Below are positions 587 to 47,349 of a stretch of 48,885 bases of DNA, piece by piece. The position numbers and the translations under genes are program-made. This stretch comes from Acinetobacter phage YC#06. Below the pieces are notes generated by a model. The model was not told the origin of the DNA, searched no databases, and saw nothing but the letters and a program-made list of their open reading frames with translations. How positions within the stretch are numbered: position 1 is the first letter of the stretch; every line of letters begins with the position of its first letter. The DNA is taken from the sequence record ON391949.1; one strand, written 5' to 3'.

Positions 587-2869
587 TTAGTTGTAATTTT
601 GAGGAAGTTCCCATAATGCTTCTGTCTTTAGACGCAATTTTTTTTGATTTTCCTTGAGACTATTCTCAATTTCCTTTATTAGTTTATGTTGTTTTACTAT
701 TTGATCTTTAACCTCTTCAGGAGGATTCGGGATCTCAATATTCAAAAACATTTCATCAGGAATACTGCGTCGTCTCTCTACACTGCCTTGCATTTTACTT
801 TTGTATATTTTTCTTAGAGAATTAGATCTCAAAATCAAATCCAAATATTCTACATTAACTTCTCGTTTTAATCTAAAGATTTTGTATGCTGGGCTTACGG
901 CAGCAGCATCGTAATATTTTTGAAATCCTAGAACACCTTCATCTATAGGGAACCCCATTACAAGTTCATTTTTAAAAACCTTTTTATACCCAGAAATATC
1001 AGAACTTGCGACTCGTTTTTTAAATTTCTCATGCTGATCAATTAAGCCATGTTCCATAGTGATACTCATAATAGGTATATTTGTATCCTCTCCCACTTTG
1101 ACTTTGCCAGACAAGGATAGGAGTTCTTTTAGTTTTATAGTTGGGAATTTTGATTTTATATGTGAATTACTATAGTGAGCATAATTATAAATATAATCAT
1201 TGCTTCTGATTAATTCTGGATTAACTTTTAAGAAACCTAATTCATTATAATATTTATCAAAGTCGCTCTTATTTAAATCAGCAAAATCTAAATTTTTTAA
1301 ATCATTTTCGTCAATTTTTCTACGGAAAGAATCTAAACTTAGGCCATCATTTGTCACATTGTAGTAAAAAACGTCAGAATTTGTTCTACCATTATGACAG
1401 TTGGTAAAGTAGAGTATATTGGTTTTAACTTTTGCATATGGCAGAAAAACTTCTTTTGGAAGTGAAACTACTGCTTTTAGTTGGGCGTTTTCAAATAAAT
1501 ACTTCCTTACTGGAGCTAAAGCGGCTTTAAAAAGAAAGCCTTCAGGTACTACTAATGCCATTCGCCCTCCTTTTTTTGTTGCTTTAAAGCAATGTAGAAC
1601 ACATACTCCATCACCATCGTTTTTAGCTAACTTATTCTCATATAAGTGAGAATAAGAAGTTTTTTGAGAAAATGGCATGTTGGTTATAACCACATCATAT
1701 TCAGATTCAATAGGGTTTTGAAGTGTGTCTATCTGGCAAATTCCACTATGCCCATCCCCATGCAGAATCATATTCATTTTTGCGAGTTTTGCATTTGAGG
1801 TAATTTCTCTTCCAAAAATAGTATTATGTTTAAGCTTGATTTCTTCACTACTATTGTTTGCAATTAAAGTGTTATCTTTTATATGATCAAATGCCTCTGT
1901 TAAAAAACCACCTGTCCCACAAAAAGGGTCATAGATCTTTTCACCATATTTAGGGTTGACTAAGTTAACAATGGTTTTAGTTATGTGACGTGGAGTAAAA
2001 TATTCTCCTAAGTCATTATTAGTTGCTGTAGCTTGCTGTAAGAAATACTCAAAAGCATCTCCTTTAATATCGGTATCTATTGATGAGAGTTTTAACTTAT
2101 CCAACTCTTTGATCATCTCTTTAACAGCAACAGGGTTGGTTAGCTGTAAATTTGTAAAAACAGAAGCACCATATTGTCTATCAATATCTTGTAGTATGTT
2201 ATTAGTTGTATTAATTAGCAAATCATTATCGAGACTTTTGAGAGAATTCCAAATACCTGTATTAGCATTCTCTGTATACAATTTTAAAAAAAGAATGTTT
2301 GCAAATTCTGAAAGCCTTTCTATACCAGCTCTTAAACCTTCACCTCTTAGTGAGTTATTTAACTTCTTGAAAACATTAATTAACTCTTTGCGAGAGACTA
2401 AAATTTCTTTAGGTGTAATATAAATACCATTTGTTTCCTGCAATATGAACTCTTTAGCTTCATTTACTCTTATTAATTCATTAACCTCATTTTCATCAAT
2501 AAATAATGGTTTTTGGGTATACAAATGCCGTGTTTCGCAGAAACCATTATTCATTGCAAATATCAAAGGTGCATCAAGCATTTCAGCATATTCGGTTGCC
2601 TGATCCAGTGCTTTTGTTAAGCTTTTTCCACCTGATTTCGTTTCAATTACACCGATTGGCCGCTTATTTTGTGAATCGAAAAGAACATAATCGGGTCTTT
2701 TTTTACTTTTCTTGAGAAACTCATTATTAACAATTCTTAAGATATCTGATTCAAAAAAGACATTTTTGTTTGGATCTTGAATGTCCAAGATCCAGCCCTT
2801 GTTAATCAAATTATTGTTAACAATAAAACGTGTATCTTGCTCAATATTAGACATATTGCATAATCCCAA
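587..2869 (-). CDS. single-polypeptide restriction-modification enzyme (HSDR_N-type PD-ExK nuclease + gamma-class N6-adenine MTase + one HsdS-like TRD); Type IIG/IIB-like
   Basis: N-terminal PDYVLFD...IGVIETK (PD-ExK); motif I DPFCGTGGF; motif IV-like TNMPF; C-terminal HsdS-like conserved IEIPNPPEEVKDQIV. Confidence 0.75.
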   Translation of the reverse strand: MGLCNMSNIEQDTRFIVNNNLINKGWILDIQDPNKNVFFESDILRIVNNEFLKKSKKRPDYVLFDSQNKRPIGVIETKSGGKSLTKALDQATEYAEMLDAPLIFAMNNGFCETRHLYTQKPLFIDENEVNELIRVNEAKEFILQETNGIYITPKEILVSRKELINVFKKLNNSLRGEGLRAGIERLSEFANILFLKLYTENANTGIWNSLKSLDNDLLINTTNNILQDIDRQYGASVFTNLQLTNPVAVKEMIKELDKLKLSSIDTDIKGDAFEYFLQQATATNNDLGEYFTPRHITKTIVNLVNPKYGEKIYDPFCGTGGFLTEAFDHIKDNTLIANNSSEEIKLKHNTIFGREITSNAKLAKMNMILHGDGHSGICQIDTLQNPIESEYDVVITNMPFSQKTSYSHLYENKLAKNDGDGVCVLHCFKATKKGGRMALVVPEGFLFKAALAPVRKYLFENAQLKAVVSLPKEVFLPYAKVKTNILYFTNCHNGRTNSDVFYYNVTNDGLSLDSFRRKIDENDLKNLDFADLNKSDFDKYYNELGFLKVNPELIRSNDYIYNYAHYSNSHIKSKFPTIKLKELLSLSGKVKVGEDTNIPIMSITMEHGLIDQHEKFKKRVASSDISGYKKVFKNELVMGFPIDEGVLGFQKYYDAAAVSPAYKIFRLKREVNVEYLDLILRSNSLRKIYKSKMQGSVERRRSIPDEMFLNIEIPNPPEEVKDQIVKQHKLIKEIENSLKENQKKLRLKTEALWELPQNYN

Positions 2870-3216: not shown

Positions 3217-3981
3217 TTAATGCGAATAAGGATGTTCTTGTCTGTGCTGACTTGGCGGCACGATATCTGTAATAGCGGTAATACTTTCAACTTCGTCCAT
3301 TTCAAAGAAAAATCGCTCACCACCATTCACAGAAAGCAAACTTAAAACCCCACCATTGATGCCGACAAATTCTTTAATTGTGCATCTTCCATCCTTCAAG
3401 CACACCTGAACAAACTCATTCGGCACAAGATCTGCATCAGGGTCGCATACTACATACCAGCCATTACGAATTGCTGGAAACATTGAGTCGCCAGTGCCTT
3501 TAATGCCATAGGCTCGTGGTCCTGCTGAGTGAGTTGGAACATAACCATCACCACCGTTACCTTCGTATCCCATATCTGTGAAATACCCATCCATACCCAT
3601 CTTTGAATAGGCTTTAACAGGAACGTATCTTTTTTGGGTGGGGAATGGTTTAACAGGTGTTTCAATAAATTTAACAGCATCTTCGCTATCGGGAATATTG
3701 TATTTTTTCTTAAAAGCTTCGATATCCAGAACTTTCAATTGTGCAACAGTGCTATCCAACTTGGGACCGCTTTCATCTCCATTAGTTATATACGAAGTCG
3801 ACACTCCGAAATAAGCGGCCATTTTGCTTAATGGGTCTGCTTTAGGAGCATAAGCATCTTTCTCCCAACCAGTAACATTAGGCGCACTAACCCCAGCGAT
3901 TTTTGCCAACTCGCCTTGGGTTAATTTCTTTTCTCTTCGTAAGGCGCGAATACGCTGACCCATAGTTTCTAGATTCTTCAT
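3217..3981 (-). CDS. CI-like phage repressor (XRE HTH + S24 LexA-like autopeptidase)
   Basis: N-terminal HTH LTQGELAKIAGVSAPNVTGWE; C-terminal GDSMFP serine motif and downstream Lys; divergent from Cro-like gene. Confidence 0.85.
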   Translation of the reverse strand: MKNLETMGQRIRALRREKKLTQGELAKIAGVSAPNVTGWEKDAYAPKADPLSKMAAYFGVSTSYITNGDESGPKLDSTVAQLKVLDIEAFKKKYNIPDSEDAVKFIETPVKPFPTQKRYVPVKAYSKMGMDGYFTDMGYEGNGGDGYVPTHSAGPRAYGIKGTGDSMFPAIRNGWYVVCDPDADLVPNEFVQVCLKDGRCTIKEFVGINGGVLSLLSVNGGERFFFEMDEVESITAITDIVPPSQHRQEHPYSH

Positions 3982-5649: not shown

Positions 5650-6543
5650 ATGCGTGACTATGGGAAAGTCTCACCACATTTCTGGACGGGAACTACGGGA
5701 AAAAAACTTCGTCAAACACCTGAAGGCTTAATTGTCGCTATGTATTTAATGACAAGCCCTCACGCGAACATGCTTGGCTTGTATTACATACCCCTTCTAT
5801 ATATTGCTCATGAAACTGGCTTGGGCTTTGAAGGGGCTTCTAAGGGGCTTCAAAGAGCCTGTGAAGCGGGGTTTTGTAGCTATGACGAAGCCACGGAGAC
5901 AGTCTGGGTGCACGAGATGGCACGTTTTCAAGTAGCTGAGTCATTAAAGCCAGCCGATAACCGCTGTAAGAACGTGCAAAAAGAGTATGATTCATTGCCG
6001 TCAAGCCCTTATTTATCAAGCTTTTTCGATAAATATGCACAAGCATTTTGTATGACTCAAAAGCGTGGCGAAAACGCCAAAATAGATAGCCCCTTACAAG
6101 CCCCTTCAAAGCCCCTTCGAAGCCAGGAACAGGAACAGGAGCAGGAGCAGGAGCAGGAACAAGAAAATACTCACACACAAAACGCGGTTGAAAATTTTTC
6201 AGCGGCCGAGGAGTCTTGGAAACCAAATCGTGAACTATTGCTGAATGTTCTTAGGACTTCACAAGTGGGTGCACAAGCAGAGCAGGTTTTAAAAATGCCA
6301 AATTATGAATTTCATCTTGGCAACTTCAATGCTCACTGGGAAAACAAAATTGATCTCACGGAAAACCAACGAACTCGAAAGTTTGCAACTTGGTTAATTC
6401 AGGAATTCACAAAGTCGATAAGACCTAAAAAACAAAACTCACCAATGAAAACTGCACCAGCAAGAGACGTAAACAGTGCTTGGGGTGATGCAAAACAGTA
6501 TGCACCAGCCACAGATGATATCGATGTAGGGGAGATGCTATGA
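5650..6543 (+). CDS. replication initiation / replisome organiser protein with internal origin-like iterons
   Basis: Position upstream of DnaC-like loader; iteron clusters and QE-repeat linker inside the gene, as in lambda O. Confidence 0.55.
   Translation: MRDYGKVSPHFWTGTTGKKLRQTPEGLIVAMYLMTSPHANMLGLYYIPLLYIAHETGLGFEGASKGLQRACEAGFCSYDEATETVWVHEMARFQVAESLKPADNRCKNVQKEYDSLPSSPYLSSFFDKYAQAFCMTQKRGENAKIDSPLQAPSKPLRSQEQEQEQEQEQEQENTHTQNAVENFSAAEESWKPNRELLLNVLRTSQVGAQAEQVLKMPNYEFHLGNFNAHWENKIDLTENQRTRKFATWLIQEFTKSIRPKKQNSPMKTAPARDVNSAWGDAKQYAPATDDIDVGEML
5823..5859. repeat. iteron cluster 3x AAGGGGCTT
   Basis: GGGCTTTGAAGGGGCTTCTAAGGGGCTTCAAAGAGCC. Confidence 0.6.
6088..6124. repeat. iteron cluster 3x AAGCCCCTT (inverse orientation); related copy at 5607-5637
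   Basis: AGCCCCTTACAAGCCCCTTCAAAGCCCCTTCGAAGCC. Confidence 0.6.
6124..6165 (+). repeat. hexanucleotide repeat (CAGGAR)x7 encoding (QE)n linker
   Basis: caggaacaggaacaggagcaggagcaggagcaggaacaagaa. Confidence 0.8.
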
Positions 6544-7310
6544 ATGCATTGAGCAAACAATTCAAAACTGAGCTGGTACAAACTAATCAGTTTTGCCCTA
6601 AACACAATGAGTTAATGGTTTTACTAATTGGTCGTCCAGTTTGCCAAACATGTGCAAATGAAGCGTATGTGAAATCACAAATTGAACACGCACACCAAGT
6701 CAACCTCATGGTACGCGAGAAACATTTTGCCGGAGCAAAACTCCCTGAGCGCCACAAGGAAAGCGGATTTAAAAATTATATGGTGAGTATCGATCCACAG
6801 AAAGAGGCTAAAGCTGCTTGCCATAAATTTGTTCAAGATTTTAATTCAGGGAAGAAGCGCAATCTGATTATGGTTGGGCGCACAGGAACAGGAAAAACCC
6901 ATCTTGCATGTGCTATTGCTCGTAACGTTTTAGACAAGCGGAGTTATGTTCGTTACGTCACCTCAGAAGACATGGCAAATGAAATTGCCACTGCATGGAC
7001 AAAGCCTGATGACAATGAAGCAAATGCAATTTTTCGCTTCACGGACTGTGATTTATTGATATTGGATGAATATGGTTTGCACGACCAACACGAGAGTCGA
7101 TTGCAGCTCGTTCATAAAGTTTTATATGCACGTTATGACGAAAAAAAGCCGACAGTTTTAATTTCCAACATGACGCTTGAGTCTACAGAAAAGGCGCAAG
7201 GTTTGAAGGAAAACTTAGGGGACCGTTTATGGTCTCGGTTTCAACATGACGGTTTGACAGTAGTTGAATGTGACTGGGATGACTTGCGTTTTGGTGGGGC
7301 AGGATCATGA
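6540..7310 (+). CDS. DnaC/IstB-like helicase loader ATPase
   Basis: Walker A GRTGTGKTH, Walker B LLILDE; follows initiator gene. Confidence 0.8.
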   Translation: MNALSKQFKTELVQTNQFCPKHNELMVLLIGRPVCQTCANEAYVKSQIEHAHQVNLMVREKHFAGAKLPERHKESGFKNYMVSIDPQKEAKAACHKFVQDFNSGKKRNLIMVGRTGTGKTHLACAIARNVLDKRSYVRYVTSEDMANEIATAWTKPDDNEANAIFRFTDCDLLILDEYGLHDQHESRLQLVHKVLYARYDEKKPTVLISNMTLESTEKAQGLKENLGDRLWSRFQHDGLTVVECDWDDLRFGGAGS

Positions 7311-10134: not shown

Positions 10135-10356
10135 TTGGCGGGGCTTTTTCTTTTTGGAGTATGTATGACTGAATTTCAAAAAATTACGCATGAGATTAGA
10201 CAGCTCCAAGTAGAGTTAAATCATTTAGGAAGCTGCAATACAAAAGACTTAACAGCAGAACAGATCGCTCACATAGATGAGCGATTTTTTTTGGCCATTG
10301 AAAAGCAAAGTAAATTAATTGCTCGTCTCAACAATAAGCCAGAGGGCTTCTTATAA
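10135..10356 (+). CDS. hypothetical small protein
   Basis: ORF after hairpin 10090-10133. Confidence 0.35.
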   Translation: MAGLFLFGVCMTEFQKITHEIRQLQVELNHLGSCNTKDLTAEQIAHIDERFFLAIEKQSKLIARLNNKPEGFL

Positions 10357-39028: not shown

Positions 39029-39418
39029 ATGGAACCAGTTTCCACAAGCGGTTTAACAGCAATTTTAAAATTTTATGGAGCGGCAATCATGGTGACTTTA
39101 GCGGTCGCTTTAGTTGCAGCAGTAGTATTAATGACACGTATGCCACGCTCACCACAAGAGTGGGCAGTGGGCTTGATCTGTACGGTTGTATCAAGTTTGG
39201 CTGGCGGCTCATTCATTATTGTGAAGTGGGGGCTTCATGAATGGGTTACTGATGTATGGGGGATGATTGCTCTAGGTGGGTTCTTCTTTGTTTGTGGATT
39301 ACCCGGTTGGGCTTTGGTCCGTTGGATTTTTAACTTCATAGATAAACAGGAAGGTAAAACGATTGTGGAAGTGATCAAAGAGTTTAAGAAAGCCAGAAAA
39401 GACATTGAAAACAGTTAA
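39029..39418 (+). CDS. holin (three predicted TM segments)
   Basis: Three hydrophobic helices; immediately upstream of endolysin. Confidence 0.55.
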   Translation: MEPVSTSGLTAILKFYGAAIMVTLAVALVAAVVLMTRMPRSPQEWAVGLICTVVSSLAGGSFIIVKWGLHEWVTDVWGMIALGGFFFVCGLPGWALVRWIFNFIDKQEGKTIVEVIKEFKKARKDIENS

Positions 39419-39419
39419 T

Positions 39420-39440
39420 GCCGCCTTCGGGCGGTTTTTT
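39420..39440 (+). terminator. rho-independent terminator after holin
   Basis: gccgccttcgggcggtttttt. Confidence 0.6.
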
Positions 39441-39460
39441 ATTACCTAAGGGAAACCGAA

Positions 39461-40006
39461 ATGAACATTGAAAAATATCTTGAAGAGTTGATCAAGCGTG
39501 AAGGTGGATACGTAAATAACCCGGCAGACCGTGGTGGTGCAACTAAATATGGCATCACTGAAGCAGTTGCTCGAGCAAATGGATTCAAAGGTAATATGCG
39601 AGATTTACCTCTGGATGTGGCCAAAGCAATTTATCGCAAAAACTATTGGACAGCCCCACGTTTTGATCAGGTGAATATCATTTCTTCTGCTGTAGCTGAA
39701 GAGCTTCTAGACACTGGTGTGAATTGCGGTACCGGATTTGCAAAACCTCTTTTACAACGTGCTTTGAATCTCCTAAATAACCAAGGTAAAGCAGGTTGGC
39801 CAGATTTAACAGTTGACGGAATTTATGGTCCAGCAACTCTTAATGCACTCAAAACTTATCTGGCCAAACGCGGGAAAGAAGGCGAGAAAGTCTTGGTACG
39901 AGTACTTAATATCATGCAAGGTCAGCGTTACATTGAAATCTGTGAGCGCAATCCAAGCCAAGAACAATTTTTCTATGGCTGGATTGCTAATCGAGTATCA
40001 ATGTGA
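39461..40006 (+). CDS. endolysin, GH108 lysozyme with C-terminal peptidoglycan-binding domain
   Basis: EGGYVNNPADRGGATKYGIT signature of GH108. Confidence 0.8.
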   Translation: MNIEKYLEELIKREGGYVNNPADRGGATKYGITEAVARANGFKGNMRDLPLDVAKAIYRKNYWTAPRFDQVNIISSAVAEELLDTGVNCGTGFAKPLLQRALNLLNNQGKAGWPDLTVDGIYGPATLNALKTYLAKRGKEGEKVLVRVLNIMQGQRYIEICERNPSQEQFFYGWIANRVSM

Positions 40007-40194
40007 AGTACCTAATTTTACTGTGCATTCTACTCAAGACTGCACAGTTACTTCGACGTATAGTGAGGTAGTTGTAAAAGTTTATAGGTAAGTTATAGGA
40101 TTGATTGGTAATAATCTTTAAATTTTAGGGGGGGATTGTTCAGATGTAGTGTATTCTGTAAAATAAAACTTAATTATATTTTGCTTTCAATACA

Positions 40195-40875
40195 ATGAAC
40201 GATCAAGTTTTCCAATTACAAATTGTTATAAATGGAGGTTTAACCCCCATTCAATCTAAGCCAGAAACACTTGATAAATTAGTAAAAGAATTTGCTATAA
40301 ATCATTTGTTGTTTCCAAAAGAAATAACTGAACAATTAATTGAGATTAATTCTCAGGATGGTTCTCAAACAAAAAAGATAACTAAATTTATTGATTTGGT
40401 TAGTAGCAATCAAAAATGTACCTACCAAATTAGAAATGATTCACTTGTATTTTTAAATTCCTTTGAGAAAATAGAGGAATTAGAAAGTATATTTGAAAAG
40501 TTTTTTAAATCGTTTTCGGATCTGACCCCATATATAAACTATAAACAATCAAAAAGATTGGGGCTAGTTCTTATTAGGGAGGATTATAATGAGGTTACAT
40601 TACGCGAGTATTGTACTTCAGAAGAATTAGATCGAAATGTTATTGAGAATAGATCGAGAAAAGTTACTCGTTTTGCTATGGCGGAACTAAATGAAATGGT
40701 AAATTTATCTGTTTCAAAAGATTATGTAACTCATGAATCAGGAGTTTCTCGAAATACTCTAGCAAGTGTTTATGATGTTAATACGTTATCTACTAAGGAT
40801 GTTTTTAGATTTACAAGTAAGGATGTAGTAAAGTTTATAAATGCTTCAAAGAAATTTATTTTAGAATCAATGTAA
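40195..40875 (+). CDS. hypothetical protein A of AT-rich three-gene cassette
   Basis: About 27% GC, own promoter, no recognised motif. Confidence 0.45.
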   Translation: MNDQVFQLQIVINGGLTPIQSKPETLDKLVKEFAINHLLFPKEITEQLIEINSQDGSQTKKITKFIDLVSSNQKCTYQIRNDSLVFLNSFEKIEELESIFEKFFKSFSDLTPYINYKQSKRLGLVLIREDYNEVTLREYCTSEELDRNVIENRSRKVTRFAMAELNEMVNLSVSKDYVTHESGVSRNTLASVYDVNTLSTKDVFRFTSKDVVKFINASKKFILESM

Positions 40876-40885
40876 GATTTTTTAT

Positions 40886-41533
40886 ATGAACTATTCAAAT
40901 AATTTATCTAATAATACTATGTATGAAAGTGGTAATCATAAAAAGATAATCACTAAGTACGAGATTGAAACAATAAAAACGGTTTGGCAAACCGATAAGA
41001 TACAGTCTTTTTTAAAAGATTACTTAAATACAGACGTAGTTAGTATTACTGACCCCACTGTTATAGAACAAAAGATAGGGGAAGAGAGCTTAAAGCAAAT
41101 TAAAAGAGAATTTGATATTTTTAAGAATAAATTTGATAATTTTCTGAGATATGAAGATGTGCCAGTCGATTATGTTTCACCTATTGAAAATGAATTAATC
41201 AACTTTTATAAACATAGTAAAGTTGAAGTTCAAGAACAAATTAGCCAATGGATTATTGATTCTTTTGATAACACAAAGGTTCTTCTTAATATTTTAAAAA
41301 TTTTAGGTAATATTGCTCCTGATTTTATTGATCATCAATTTTTAACTAATTTTCTTATCGTTCTTAATCATAAAGATACTGAAATCAAAGAATATGCATT
41401 AAGAATTCAAGAGAAATTAATGCTTCCATCATATAATAATGTACTGAAGCACTCTAAGTTAACTCCAAAATGGATTGATGACTATAGAAAAGAATTGGTT
41501 GAATTGTATGAAGAAGATAATAAAGGTAGTTAA
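40886..41533 (+). CDS. hypothetical protein B of cassette
   Basis: 10-bp spacing from A. Confidence 0.45.
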   Translation: MNYSNNLSNNTMYESGNHKKIITKYEIETIKTVWQTDKIQSFLKDYLNTDVVSITDPTVIEQKIGEESLKQIKREFDIFKNKFDNFLRYEDVPVDYVSPIENELINFYKHSKVEVQEQISQWIIDSFDNTKVLLNILKILGNIAPDFIDHQFLTNFLIVLNHKDTEIKEYALRIQEKLMLPSYNNVLKHSKLTPKWIDDYRKELVELYEEDNKGS

Positions 41534-41539
41534 TTTAAT

Positions 41540-41725
41540 ATGACTATTTTTGTAAGAAAGATAAGTAAAGCAAAATGGCCTTCTGAAGAGGAAATTGCAG
41601 AAAAAGCACTGGATTCAGAAATTATACCTTTTGTCAGAGCCGATGCCTTAACTACTTGTTTAAAAACTTCTCAAAATACTTTATCTGTATGGGCAGAAAG
41701 ATTAAAAGAAATAAAGGCGGTCTAA
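41540..41725 (+). CDS. hypothetical 61-aa protein C of cassette
   Basis: Ends at bidirectional hairpin 41714-41732. Confidence 0.4.
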   Translation: MTIFVRKISKAKWPSEEEIAEKALDSEIIPFVRADALTTCLKTSQNTLSVWAERLKEIKAV

Positions 41726-41732
41726 CCGCCTT
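41714..41732. terminator. bidirectional hairpin between convergent cassette and leftward early block
   Basis: aaggcggtctaaccgcctt. Confidence 0.5.
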
Positions 41733-42000
41733 AAACTGTTGCAAGCTGTGCTGTATTAAGCACAGTCTTGCTTTGCTCATACTTCAAAACGTCCTTCTTT
41801 TTATATGAAACACGTCTTCCAATTTTCGAGAAAGGCAGTGATGATTGATCACAACGCATTCTAGCTAATGTCCAAGGCGAGCAATCTAAATAAAGTGCCA
41901 CAACCTCTTGAGGGAACTTCTGTTCTTCATTAGCCATTATGAAGCGATCCAAATATTCTTGTTGCTCTGCATCAGATAGATTTCTCAGATCTTTTAACAT
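41731..42000 (-). CDS. AlpA/excisionase-like HTH protein
   Basis: VVALYLDCSPWTLARMR ... RRVSYKKKDV resembles AlpA/Xis family. Confidence 0.5.
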   Translation of the reverse strand: MLKDLRNLSDAEQQEYLDRFIMANEEQKFPQEVVALYLDCSPWTLARMRCDQSSLPFSKIGRRVSYKKKDVLKYEQSKTVLNTAQLATV

Positions 42001-45401: not shown

Positions 45402-45473
45402 CTTTAAGCCTCCAACAACTTGTTACGTTCGATGAAGCCTCTCGAGCACACGCGCCACACGTACACCCGTTAG

Positions 45474-46683
45474 GGAAACGCTGATCAATGAGCCTGTCGT
45501 CCGCATAACGGACGAGGCAGGTTGCAATTTTCAGATTGACGTAGGAATTTGACGACATGCGAGGTGAGTTTCGCTCGTATTCGGGCCTCACTTCCCGCGT
45601 TTTTCACACACATGACGGATTGCTCCCATGAGTCGACAACAGCTGATTTTTCGCGATCACCAGGTTCGCCAGCGCGAACAGACTGAACAGCTGTGCCGTG
45701 TTCCTGGCTAGACCCTTGTAGCGCACCTTGCGATGACGAAACAGGTTCTTCACGACATGAAACGGATGCTCGACCCGGGCGCGGATCTGCGCCTTGGTTC
45801 GCTCGACCGCGATCACGAGGTCCTTCAGCGGACCTTCCTGCATCGCCCTGATCTTTCCGCGCTTGAGCGCCACGTGCCACTTCACCGTCTTGCCCTTCAT
45901 CTCCTCGCGCTTGTCCACGCCGGTGTAGCCCGCATCGCCAAACGCTTCCTGCTCATGACCGTGCAGCAGGGCGTGGGCCTGCGATACGTCCGGCTCGTTG
46001 GCCGCCGTGGTGACCACGCTATGCACCAGACCCGAGTCGGCGTCGACGCCGACATGGGCCTTCATGCCGAAATACCAGTCGTTGCCCTTCTTCGTCTGAT
46101 GCATCTCCGGGTCACGGCTCTTCCCGGCGTTCTTCGTGGACGGCGCAGCCTCGAAGATCGTCGCATCCACCAGCGTGCCTTCCTTCATCATCAGCCCGCG
46201 CTCGCACAACTCGATGCCGATCTCGTCGAACAGCTTTCGCGTCAGTGCGTGCTCGACCAGCAGGCGCCGGAATTTCAACAGCGTGGTGGCGTCCGGCACG
46301 TTCTCGCGCGCCAGGTCGATGCCCGCGAAGGCGCGCATCGCGATGCTGTCGTAGAGCGCATCTTCAAGCCCTTCGTCCGACAACCCGTACCACTGCTGCA
46401 GCAAGTAGATCCGCAGCATCCGTTCCAGGCCAATCGGCGGCCGGCCACGCTCGCCCTTCGGGTAATACGGCCCGATCACCGACAGCAGCCGCGACCAAGG
46501 GACGACCTTCTCCATCTCGGCCAGAAAGCGTTGACGCTTGGTCACCCGCTTCTTGCCCGCACTTTCCGCTTCCGCAAAACCGATCTGCCGCTGCATCGTC
46601 GTGGGTCCGTTCCGTGAGCTTCTTTCTACAACGCCCTTGGCCTCGTCAGCGATGACCGCCAAGCCGAATTGATCAGTGTTTCC
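45474..46683 (-). mobile_element. IS5-family insertion sequence, 1210 bp, 16-bp imperfect IRs GGAAACRCTGATCAAT, TSD TTAG (45470-45473 and 46684-46687)
   Basis: 65% GC island in a 40% GC background; terminal inverted repeats and flanking 4-bp direct repeat matching IS5 YTAR target. Confidence 0.8.
45604..46662 (-). CDS. IS5-family DDE transposase
   Basis: Alignable along full length to E. coli IS5 transposase (…LRIYLLQQWYGLSDEGLEDALYD…DPEMHQTKKGNDWYFGMKAHVGVD…RARVEHPF…). Confidence 0.85.
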   Translation of the reverse strand: MAVIADEAKGVVERSSRNGPTTMQRQIGFAEAESAGKKRVTKRQRFLAEMEKVVPWSRLLSVIGPYYPKGERGRPPIGLERMLRIYLLQQWYGLSDEGLEDALYDSIAMRAFAGIDLARENVPDATTLLKFRRLLVEHALTRKLFDEIGIELCERGLMMKEGTLVDATIFEAAPSTKNAGKSRDPEMHQTKKGNDWYFGMKAHVGVDADSGLVHSVVTTAANEPDVSQAHALLHGHEQEAFGDAGYTGVDKREEMKGKTVKWHVALKRGKIRAMQEGPLKDLVIAVERTKAQIRARVEHPFHVVKNLFRHRKVRYKGLARNTAQLFSLFALANLVIAKNQLLSTHGSNPSCV

Positions 46684-47349
46684 TTAGCGAGAAGGACCAC
46701 TCTGTACTCCGGTCTCACTATTTTTTCTAAAAAGATAATGTTTGAAGCAATTAAATACATTCCAAAAATTTCGACCTTGGACTACATTTTCGTACTTGAT
46801 CCAAGCGCTAAAAGTAACTTTTTGGTACAACCTTGAGCTGAAATCTGGTTCAAGGTTGAACGTTAAAGTAGAGTTGTTCTCTAGCCTATAGCATTCTTTT
46901 TGACCTGTGACGTGGTTTTCAGGTAATTTTTCAATTACAGCTCCAACCGTCTTGGATTTTATCCATAGATTCCGTCCTCCCACCTTCATTTTTGAAAATT
47001 CTTCACGCAATTTCCCAGCTTCAGATACAACTAAAGTCTTATCTGCTTTATCCTTGGTTGCGTTCAGGATTTCCTGACGGATAGAGCCAGCTCGCACCTC
47101 AAATTCAGCCTGACTCAACTTCTGATTTAGCTTGTTCTGCGTGTCTGTCTCAAGCCTCTTCACAGATTGCCGGATATTTTCAGCAGTCACATTGAGTGAG
47201 CTGATATCCACTTTGGTTCTAAGCCCTTCAGTCAAGCTTCTCACACCAGCGTCGAGCGAGTTGGCTCGTTGTTTAAAGGTCGATTCTACTGTTGAAATCT
47301 GCAACTCAACAAGCGCGTAGGGCACGTCTACAAGAAAGCATTTATGCAA
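46684..47349 (-). pseudogene. 5'-truncated ORF (beta-rich C-terminal domain, possibly fibre-like); its first 15 codons are antisense T7 RNAP sequence
   Basis: The ORF's own stop codon TAA overlaps the IS target duplication; homology break at about 47302. Confidence 0.3.

Follow-up and report, generated by a model that had tools for sequence, protein, structure and literature searches.

An AT-rich accessory cassette in Acinetobacter phage YC#06 ends in a fusion to the remnant of a deleted integrase gene

Downstream of the endolysin gene of Acinetobacter phage YC#06 (sequence record ON391949.1; the whole stretch analysed, 48,885 nucleotides (nt), is called the window) lies an AT-rich cassette that a first-pass annotation had described as three genes at a place where an integrase would be expected, forming a candidate novel accessory or defence module. 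Three co-directional open reading frames (ORFs) are indeed present on the plus strand: gene A (40195–40875, 226 amino acids (aa)), gene B (40886–41533, 215 aa) and ORF3 (41540–41725, 61 aa). The AT-richness was also borne out, with a GC content of 0.276 in the cassette against 0.405 in the remaining window, and of 0.23–0.32 across 40050–41700 against about 0.40–0.49 on either side. The endolysin gene (39461–40006, plus strand; GH108 and PG_binding_3 domains, Pfam 4.7e-25 and 8.9e-19) is the last late gene of the backbone before the cassette. Beyond the cassette lies an 89-aa Xis/AlpA-like gene (41731–42000, minus strand) that matches phrog_2528. This is the convergent AlpA/Xis-like gene of the first-pass annotation: it is convergent, of helix-turn-helix (HTH) type and, in canonical prophages, 5 nt from the integrase gene (int), but its match to HTH_17 (1.3e-4) is below threshold, at 22.6 bits versus the 27 set by Pfam. 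Genome comparison places the window with the Vieuvirus-type Acinetobacter baumannii siphophages: its first 4.3 kb are 99.7% identical to Acinetobacter phage YMC/09/02/B1251 (genus Vieuvirus; hereafter B1251) and the cassette region is 98.9% identical. All three cassette ORFs are recorded as "hypothetical protein" in the B1251 record and in several related phage records.

On alignment, the cassette in the window resolves not into three genes but into two intact genes and a truncated third fused to a piece of int. ORF3 matches only positions 1–46 of the 178-position family phrog_10743, and its last 16 residues match the end of another family. In phage AbTJ the homologous gene, here called gene C, is 594 nt long (197 aa) and is followed by a umuC fragment and an insertion sequence (IS). 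In phage Acba_1, too, this umuC fragment and IS are present, and after them comes a 420-aa tyrosine integrase (Pfam PF00589 and PF13356; Phage_integrase and Arm-DNA-bind) whose stop codon lies 5 nt from a convergent 270-nt HTH gene; ORF3 and the HTH gene of the window are likewise 5 nt apart. In a three-way alignment the window is identical to AbTJ gene C as far as ...AATACTTTATCTGT, and from ATCTGTATGGGCAGAAAGATT... onwards it is identical to the end of Acba_1 int, a stretch that takes in the int stop codon, the hairpin and the first part of the HTH gene. The first part of ORF3 (41540–41696, plus strand) corresponds to codons 1–52 of the 197-aa protein and is 100% identical to AbTJ gene C residues 1–52. 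The last part (41697–41725, plus strand) comprises the final nine int codons (ERLKEIKAV) and stop, identical to Acba_1 int 10269–10297. Between them, at 41683–41696 (plus strand), lies the 14-nt microhomology ATCTGTATGGGCAG, common to gene C and the int 3' end with one mismatch; the parents' common stretch, ATCTGT(T/A)TGGGCAG, encodes S-V-W-A in both gene C and the integrase. Given this colinear identity, first to AbTJ gene C and then to Acba_1 int, and the conserved 5-nt spacing that likewise assigns the 3' end to a tyrosine integrase, ORF3 therefore reads as gene C codons 1–52 joined to the last nine int codons, that is, a deletion chimera and not an independent gene.

By the AbTJ/Acba_1 layout, the deletion spans about 3.8 kb. 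Comparison with these two phages indicates that it took out 145 C-terminal residues of C, along with the umuC fragment and the IS, the DNA upstream of int in which attP is expected, and almost the whole of int. The first-pass annotation had seen no integrase in the window, and searches of the window by phmmer with four integrases agreed, returning only the nine-codon remnant in the ORF3 frame (int query, E 0.0068) and nothing else; no integrase was found in phage A1626.2 either. The integrase is missing because the deletion that truncated the cassette also removed int. Among phage records, tblastn found full-length C in three and residues 1–52 only in seven. The absence of int and xis from B1251, relative to its temperate relative R3177, had already been noted (Turner et al. 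2017, PMC5795418), and no description of the gene C–int junction was found in that paper; here the B1251 integrase loss is defined, from the alignments, as a microhomology deletion fusing gene C to the int end. A reciprocal decay is seen in Acba_1 (6108–6938 of the stretch compared, L005), which has lost A, B and codons 1–73 of C and retains C residues 74–197 as a 103-aa ORF, with the umuC fragment, the IS and an intact int downstream.

The wider genomic record shows where the cassette sits in an intact prophage. The HTH gene was found in >13,000 assembly blocks, usually next to the 420-aa int, beyond which come bacterial genes. The distance between the int/HTH junction and one contig end is 1.26 kb in IMG/VR proviruses, and in several of those contigs a full-length gene C ends about 157 nt from the opposite end. 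The canonical order is attL, int, HTH gene and early genes, continuing to the tail, holin-like and endolysin genes, A, B, C, umuDC or its remnants, and attR. With int at one end and gene C at the other, the cassette is therefore attR-proximal cargo that adjoins attP–int only when the genome is circular.

The exact 61-aa chimera occurs in 89 assembly blocks, of which 44 are megabase-scale A. baumannii chromosomes. These chromosomal loci show an unbroken order of tail and lysis genes, A, B, chimera, HTH gene, early genes, CI/Cro and replication genes, and phage genes are continuous on both sides of the junction (L034–L039; CP142892.1, CP020579.1, CP134596.1, CP099989.1 and CP142102.1). An element without attP and int should not integrate on its own. 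A1626.2 and other junction phages came from prophage induction and recombination in an Appelmans protocol, and some of their plaques were turbid (PMC10730860). The sole IMG/VR contig with the junction is UViG_2938851558_000004 (L079/L099), a 100.6-kb provirus in which the junction lies near 53 kb. One hypothesis, suggested by the place of the junction near the middle of this provirus, would account for all of these observations: that the deletion arose between gene C and the int of the next prophage in a tandem double lysogen, and that packaging across such a tandem-prophage junction would yield integrase-less genomes of the B1251 type. Exact 32–35-mers from TerL and endolysin detected no second copy in the 100.6-kb contig, so this tandem origin could not be confirmed. 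Two junction alleles were observed, the mismatch base being A (int type) at window position 41689 and T (gene C type) at L079 position 5150, and the hairpin loop of the same provirus also differs from that of the window by one single-nucleotide polymorphism (C versus T). The two alleles reflect either independent crossovers on either side of the mismatch or later conversion.

Where the cassette is intact, as in AbTJ and Ab105-1phi, it comprises A of about 230 aa, B of about 210 aa and C of about 160–200 aa in a module of 1.8–2.0 kb, with abutting or overlapping ORFs. The A-B-C order is constant in about 40 independent loci, which comprise prophages and small plasmids as well as chromosomal islets and viral contigs, and the hosts include Proteobacteria, Bacteroidota, Myxococcota, KSB1 and Clostridia (at least five phyla). 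Word-indexed searches recovered gene A from Acinetobacter only, and B and C together on further contigs. A pattern scan over one genome per species added 13 loci, from Flavobacteriales, Bacteroidales, Prevotella, Saprospiraceae, KSB1, Limnohabitans, Hyphomicrobiales, Zetaproteobacteria, Haliangium and Clostridia. Local hidden Markov model (HMM) searches found A and B directly 5' of C at 11 of these 13 loci, with no significant gene B hit at the Prevotella locus and no gene A hit at the Haliangium locus. The same arrangement was found in all 19 informative diverse viral contigs. Taken together, the comparisons show A-B-C to be an obligate three-gene operon as judged from gene order.

Among phages, the triad lies between umuDC and int in a prophage of Acinetobacter sp. 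G11, between the CI repressor and int in Aeromonas P2-like prophages, and in the order endolysin, A-B-C, umuCD, int in a second A. baumannii prophage type. Elsewhere, it occupies a chromosomal islet flanked by an acyl-CoA dehydrogenase gene and purF, and it is the main cargo of small plasmids (Klebsiella ColE1-type, 4,375 bp, NZ_OW968434.1; Enterobacter, 5,042 bp; Acinetobacter RepM/MobQ). A-B-C is also carried, with a RelB/YafQ toxin–antitoxin pair, on a repeated plasmid-like unit of about 5.5 kb present in 358 assembly blocks, one variant of which stands beside a GmrSD_N gene. Defence-type neighbours were thus present at some triad loci, in the form of the toxin–antitoxin pair, GmrSD_N or a DNA methylase. 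In metagenomes the 5.5-kb unit (L006–L009) additionally holds a 172-aa and a 328-aa gene and is assembled as tandem repeats; one record is labelled Paludibacteraceae, with proteins closest to Acinetobacter, and the unit could be either a small plasmid of wide occurrence or a recurring contaminant. In nearly every one of 23 loci the triad is more AT-rich than its flanks, for example 0.35 versus 0.59 GC in Aeromonas. No copy was found in complete Escherichia coli genomes at the DNA level, and literature searches by accession numbers and by defence and ADP-ribosyltransferase (ART) keywords found no description of the cassette. Strict synteny, patchy phylogeny, mobile carriage and foreign composition together argue for a horizontally transferred functional unit.

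Apart from the coding regions, several signals had been proposed for the cassette. The promoter-like site TTGTTC-17-TAAAAT (40136–40164, plus strand; TTGTTC at 40136–40141 and TAAAAT at 40159–40164) agrees with the consensus at eight of 12 positions. Its hexamers and spacing are present as proposed, but the −35 hexamer matches at only three of six positions, a consensus promoter scan of the region did not list the site, and the region holds fewer promoter-like sites (8) than shuffled sequences do (12.7). Another prophage (L033), with a cassette only about 73% identical, has TTGTCC-17-TAGAAT at the same place upstream, and since the pattern TTGTyC-17-TA(A/G)AAT is kept there despite diverged surrounding intergenic DNA, we favour, with modest support from conservation, the reading of a real promoter. 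The G7 tract noted directly upstream of the −35 element is present at 40128–40134 (plus strand); three Vieuvirus copies have it unchanged, and diverged cassette copies lack it. A role for the tract as a phase-variation switch was rejected, as it shows neither length variation nor conservation across copies.

The bidirectional hairpin thought to end the cassette is also present (AAGGCGGTCTAACCGCCTT, 41714–41732), but a terminator scan called it solely in the minus-strand direction, in which it is followed by a T-run; the plus strand has no T-run. The same hairpin sequence lies 3' of int in Acba_1 and in 31 IMG/VR proviruses, so it is part of the backbone terminator between int and the convergent HTH gene. 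It is also the sole hairpin downstream of the cassette in the window, where no terminator of the cassette's own was found. With its deviant composition, its place between the endolysin gene and the integration module and its conserved promoter-like site, the cassette nonetheless has the marks of moron-type cargo, and it is absent or replaced in other Vieuviruses. The evidence therefore supports a foreign AT-rich accessory cassette at a prophage cargo position adjoining the integrase's expected place. The first reading was thus partly upheld, being right in spirit (foreign cargo at an integration-proximal hotspot) and wrong in anatomy (two genes plus a scar, with the hairpin and the lack of an integrase both traceable to a single deletion).

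The first-pass annotation recognised no domain in any of the three ORFs, and we likewise found no Pfam domain. Pfam, NCBIfam and PADLOC gave no family match for the window proteins, full-length C or distant homologues, and the PHROG matches of the window proteins were to families of unknown function only. No transmembrane or hydrophobic segments were detected (maximum Kyte–Doolittle 19-residue score of 1.11 or less), and the proteins are therefore soluble and not holins or spanins. Gene A, intact in the window, belongs to an unannotated family (phrog_13731, function unknown) that aligns across many phyla with invariant residues F33, P41, E46, R121, N170, N196, T197 and R205; its product is a soluble alpha/beta protein. 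A narrow gene A profile in exhaustive HMMER searches recovered only about seven clusters, having been too narrow to reach the wider family later shown by synteny, and gave weak arginine-kinase hits (E 0.08). Membership of the phosphagen/protein-arginine kinases was rejected on the basis of hhalign against an alignment of Bacillus subtilis McsB and Limulus arginine kinase (sequences validated as about 100% identical to PDB entries), with a probability of 8.7% for the narrow profile and 2% for the broad one; none of the kinase signatures (NEEDH, C-P-x-[ST]-N-[IL]-G-T and the Arg cluster) is found among the invariant residues. A fold resemblance to glutamine-synthetase (GS)/guanido kinases is unproven.

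Gene B, also intact (phrog_14576), has a hypervariable N-terminal region of about 75 residues (40886–41110), which differs between Acinetobacter copies even where their C-terminal domains are >90% conserved. That C-terminal domain is helical and strongly conserved, with HEAT-like motifs, and the only PDB sequence hit of gene B is a designed helical repeat protein (7e-5). The AbTJ annotation of gene B uses a later start, giving 204 aa.

In gene C, R6, W13, D35, T43, L48, S49, W51 and H113 are invariant across phyla and K7, I8, K12, T38, C40, N46, G102 and D115 nearly so; the remnant in the window keeps R6, W13, D35, T43, S49 and W51 and has lost the half with H113 and D115. A confident AlphaFold2 model from 20 sequences had a predicted local distance difference test score (pLDDT) of 85.9 and a predicted template modelling score (pTM) of 0.80. 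Its structural neighbours belong almost entirely to the ART/NADase-fold class of toxins, mostly those of toxin–antitoxin systems, and the model may be likened to toxins such as DarT, RES and Tpt1. R6 lies on strand 1, and T43 and S49 lie at strand 2, which is followed by a helix, an arrangement that recalls the R-S part of the R-S-E motif. Gene C has no invariant Glu, and H113-x-D115 on a later strand is the only candidate for a third element. Foldseek of the model against PDB returned nothing significant, with DarT recurring only at a probability of 0.07 or less; gene C profile searches found no ART in PDB, and 20 or more diverse gene C members gave no Pfam, NCBIfam or PADLOC hit to ART families (DarT/DUF4433, RES, PTS_2-RNA and ART). 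We treat an ART fold for gene C as a tentative lead, with the odds somewhat against it.

These observations suggest that mobile elements carry the triad as a self-contained cargo, whose most likely role is anti-phage defence of abortive-infection type or addiction. C would be the effector, in keeping with its invariant polar residues (R6, D35, T43, S49 and H113). B, which is translationally coupled to C, could act as an inhibitor of C, as a sensor or as both, with a hypervariable N terminus on a helical repeat scaffold, and A may be an accessory or regulatory subunit. In the window the effector would have been destroyed with the loss of the H113/D115 half, and because of this loss the cassette is probably non-functional if all three genes are needed, A and B then being a likely relic; the two might by themselves retain some function. 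The two natural deletion variants (the B1251 type and Acba_1) both disable C and neither leaves an intact C without its partners, an anecdotal pattern that would fit a toxic effector. On balance we think it probable, with real room for doubt, that the window holds a deletion-chimera copy of a mobile three-gene cargo module, likely for defence or addiction, that is inactive here.

Several points weigh against this account. The junction in many complete A. baumannii chromosomes goes unexplained by a simple story of a lytic deletion mutant, and one chromosomal copy of the triad is flanked by housekeeping genes and does not sit in a defence island. The structure model of gene A is poor (pLDDT 57), and the kinase-like HMMER hits of gene A vanish with a broader profile. 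No PADLOC model matches any triad member at the sequence level: PADLOC-DB 2.0 gave no relevant hit for the window proteins, for full-length C or for the Klebsiella, Aeromonas, Acinetobacter-plasmid and Enterobacter homologues. The function of the triad is, finally, something that we only infer. The first-pass label of a candidate novel accessory or defence module is thus reasonable as far as foreign cargo with no known domain is concerned, but defence is only a candidate role, and the PADLOC scan was negative.

A more specific version of the defence account, in which A-B-C is an undescribed tripartite abortive-infection system with C as a divergent ART/NADase-fold effector, B as a helical-repeat sensor-inhibitor and A providing a guanido-kinase/GS-like nucleotide-dependent step, is conceivable but doubtful. 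A rival to the main account is a pure addiction or toxin–antitoxin stabilisation module without an anti-phage role, with C as its toxin, B as its antitoxin and A as a regulator or chaperone. The tight coupling of the ORFs, the triad's place as the main or only cargo of tiny ColE1-type and RepM plasmids, the toxin–antitoxin toxins that make up most structural neighbours of the gene C model and the fact that natural deletions disabled C and never left it partnerless would all suit such a module. Some triad plasmids, however, already have a RelB/YafQ pair, three genes of about 200 aa each are large for a toxin–antitoxin module, and the hypervariable N terminus of B better suits a sensor under diversifying selection than a plain antitoxin. 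We rate addiction alone as rather unlikely, bearing in mind that addiction and defence are not mutually exclusive.

We regard it as improbable that the triad is offensive for its carrier, supplying anti-defence or host-takeover enzymes by analogy with T4 Alt/Mod, or a phage-specific function in lysogenic conversion or superinfection exclusion. Carriage by at least three unrelated prophage types and many viral contigs, the triad's own promoter-like site and the precedent of ART-type anti-CRISPR enzymes (AcrIF11) from phages and plasmids would agree with such a role, but copies also occur on small non-phage plasmids and in a chromosomal islet without nearby phage genes, phage lineages without gene C are still viable and inducible (PMC10730860), and known anti-defence genes are usually single, small and early. 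There is very little to be said for the ORFs as lysis accessories (spanins or a holin partner) or as chance ORFs in AT-rich junk, although they directly follow the endolysin gene and no spanin was identified nearby. The proteins are conserved to about 15–20% identity, with invariant residues, in many phyla and away from lysis genes, and the lysis cassette of the G11 prophage, its LysC-type spanin included, is separate from the triad. A spanin or lysis role was rejected, as the proteins have neither the transmembrane segment of an i-spanin nor the lipobox and other lipoprotein features of an o-spanin, and the triad occurs on plasmids and chromosomes without lysis genes. Nor is the region a lysis or structural module, an identity that would have counted against the first-pass reading: its proteins lack transmembrane segments, and triad copies lie on plasmids and chromosomes far from any lysis gene.

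The remainder of the window contained further variable DNA. Across 39029–40006, where the holin-like gene (129 aa) and the GH108 endolysin gene lie, no neighbouring spanin-like gene was recognised; the G11 prophage, by contrast, has a LysC-type spanin pair after its lysozyme gene. Just past the endolysin stop codon, at 40020–40048, lies an 8-bp inverted repeat (ACTGTGCA...TGCACAGT) with a 13-nt loop and no T-run, and it could be where the late operon ends, before the cassette promoter; the diverged cassette copy L033 has a GC-rich hairpin at the equivalent place. A1626.2 (L001, 3632–4379) and one of the junction chromosomes (L034, 7113–7860) carry a two-gene insert between the holin-like gene and the endolysin gene that the window lacks. 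Its ORFs (180 aa and 59 aa) have no domains, and it forms another variable cargo slot within the lysis module. Near the other end of the window, between the early-left genes and a CI-like repressor gene (3217–3981, minus strand), a gene at 587–2869 (minus strand) encodes a 760-aa protein with N6_Mtase and HSDR_N domains. The protein is a methylase of a fused type I/IIG-like kind; its gene, which chromosomal prophage copies also have, may be a further piece of accessory or defence-type cargo. Finally, 45466–46687 shares 99.9% identity with ISBmu23 of Burkholderia phage KS5, and what remains of the last 3.4 kb (to 48885) matches Klebsiella/Escherichia T7-like phages and Streptococcus phages, with fragments of T7-type RNA polymerase and terminase. 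The segment 45466–48885 thus looks like DNA from outside Acinetobacter phages, a foreign patchwork joined to a B1251-like genome inside its last gene.

More broadly, the cassette in its intact form is an unannotated and widely distributed three-gene module, for which a defence or addiction function with an ART-like effector is the best-supported guess. If either function is true, bacterial immunity would gain three protein families that lack annotation and perhaps a new branch of ART-like effectors, and test material is at hand in the 4.4–5-kb enterobacterial triad plasmids and in A. baumannii prophages with intact or naturally broken copies. For phage biology, the B1251-type "lytic" Acinetobacter phages proposed for therapy are integrase-deletion derivatives of temperate prophages that retain the CI repressor. 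The deletion junction is present in dozens of clinical A. baumannii chromosomes, and the annotated 61-aa "hypothetical protein" of these genomes is a deletion scar.

Among known systems, the triad resembles DarTG and Xre-RES/ParST/MbcTA in that gene C would encode a small cytoplasmic effector (about 160–200 aa) on mobile elements and is tightly coupled to an upstream partner gene. Unlike the DarTG and RES systems, it has three genes instead of two, lacks a macrodomain or Xre partner, shows no sequence or profile match to DarT (DUF4433), RES, Pfam or PADLOC models, and has no recognisable catalytic triad in gene C. CmdTAC (PD-T4-9), reportedly described by Vassallo et al. in 2022 and 2024, is said to be a toxin–antitoxin–chaperone anti-phage system whose toxin is an mRNA ADP-ribosyltransferase. 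The triad shares with it a three-gene composition and one component that is a putative ART-fold toxin, the anti-phage role being known for CmdTAC. The two differ in gene order, with the putative ART of the triad coming last, and gene A (226 aa) is not SecB-like in size, its poor model suggesting a different topology; moreover, PADLOC includes PD-T4 systems and still gave no hit for the triad. As for genomic setting, Rousset et al. (2022) reportedly described two cargo hotspots in P2 and P4, of which the repressor–int slot, where the triad sits in P2-like prophages, is said not to be one. Unlike known hotspot cargo, the cassette belongs to no described system. Its behaviour is nonetheless that of the cargo and morons of P2/P4-type prophages: it has a foreign composition and its own promoter-like site, it lies between conserved modules beside the integration module, some relatives carry it while others lack it or have something else in its place, and its Aeromonas copy is itself carried by a P2-like prophage.

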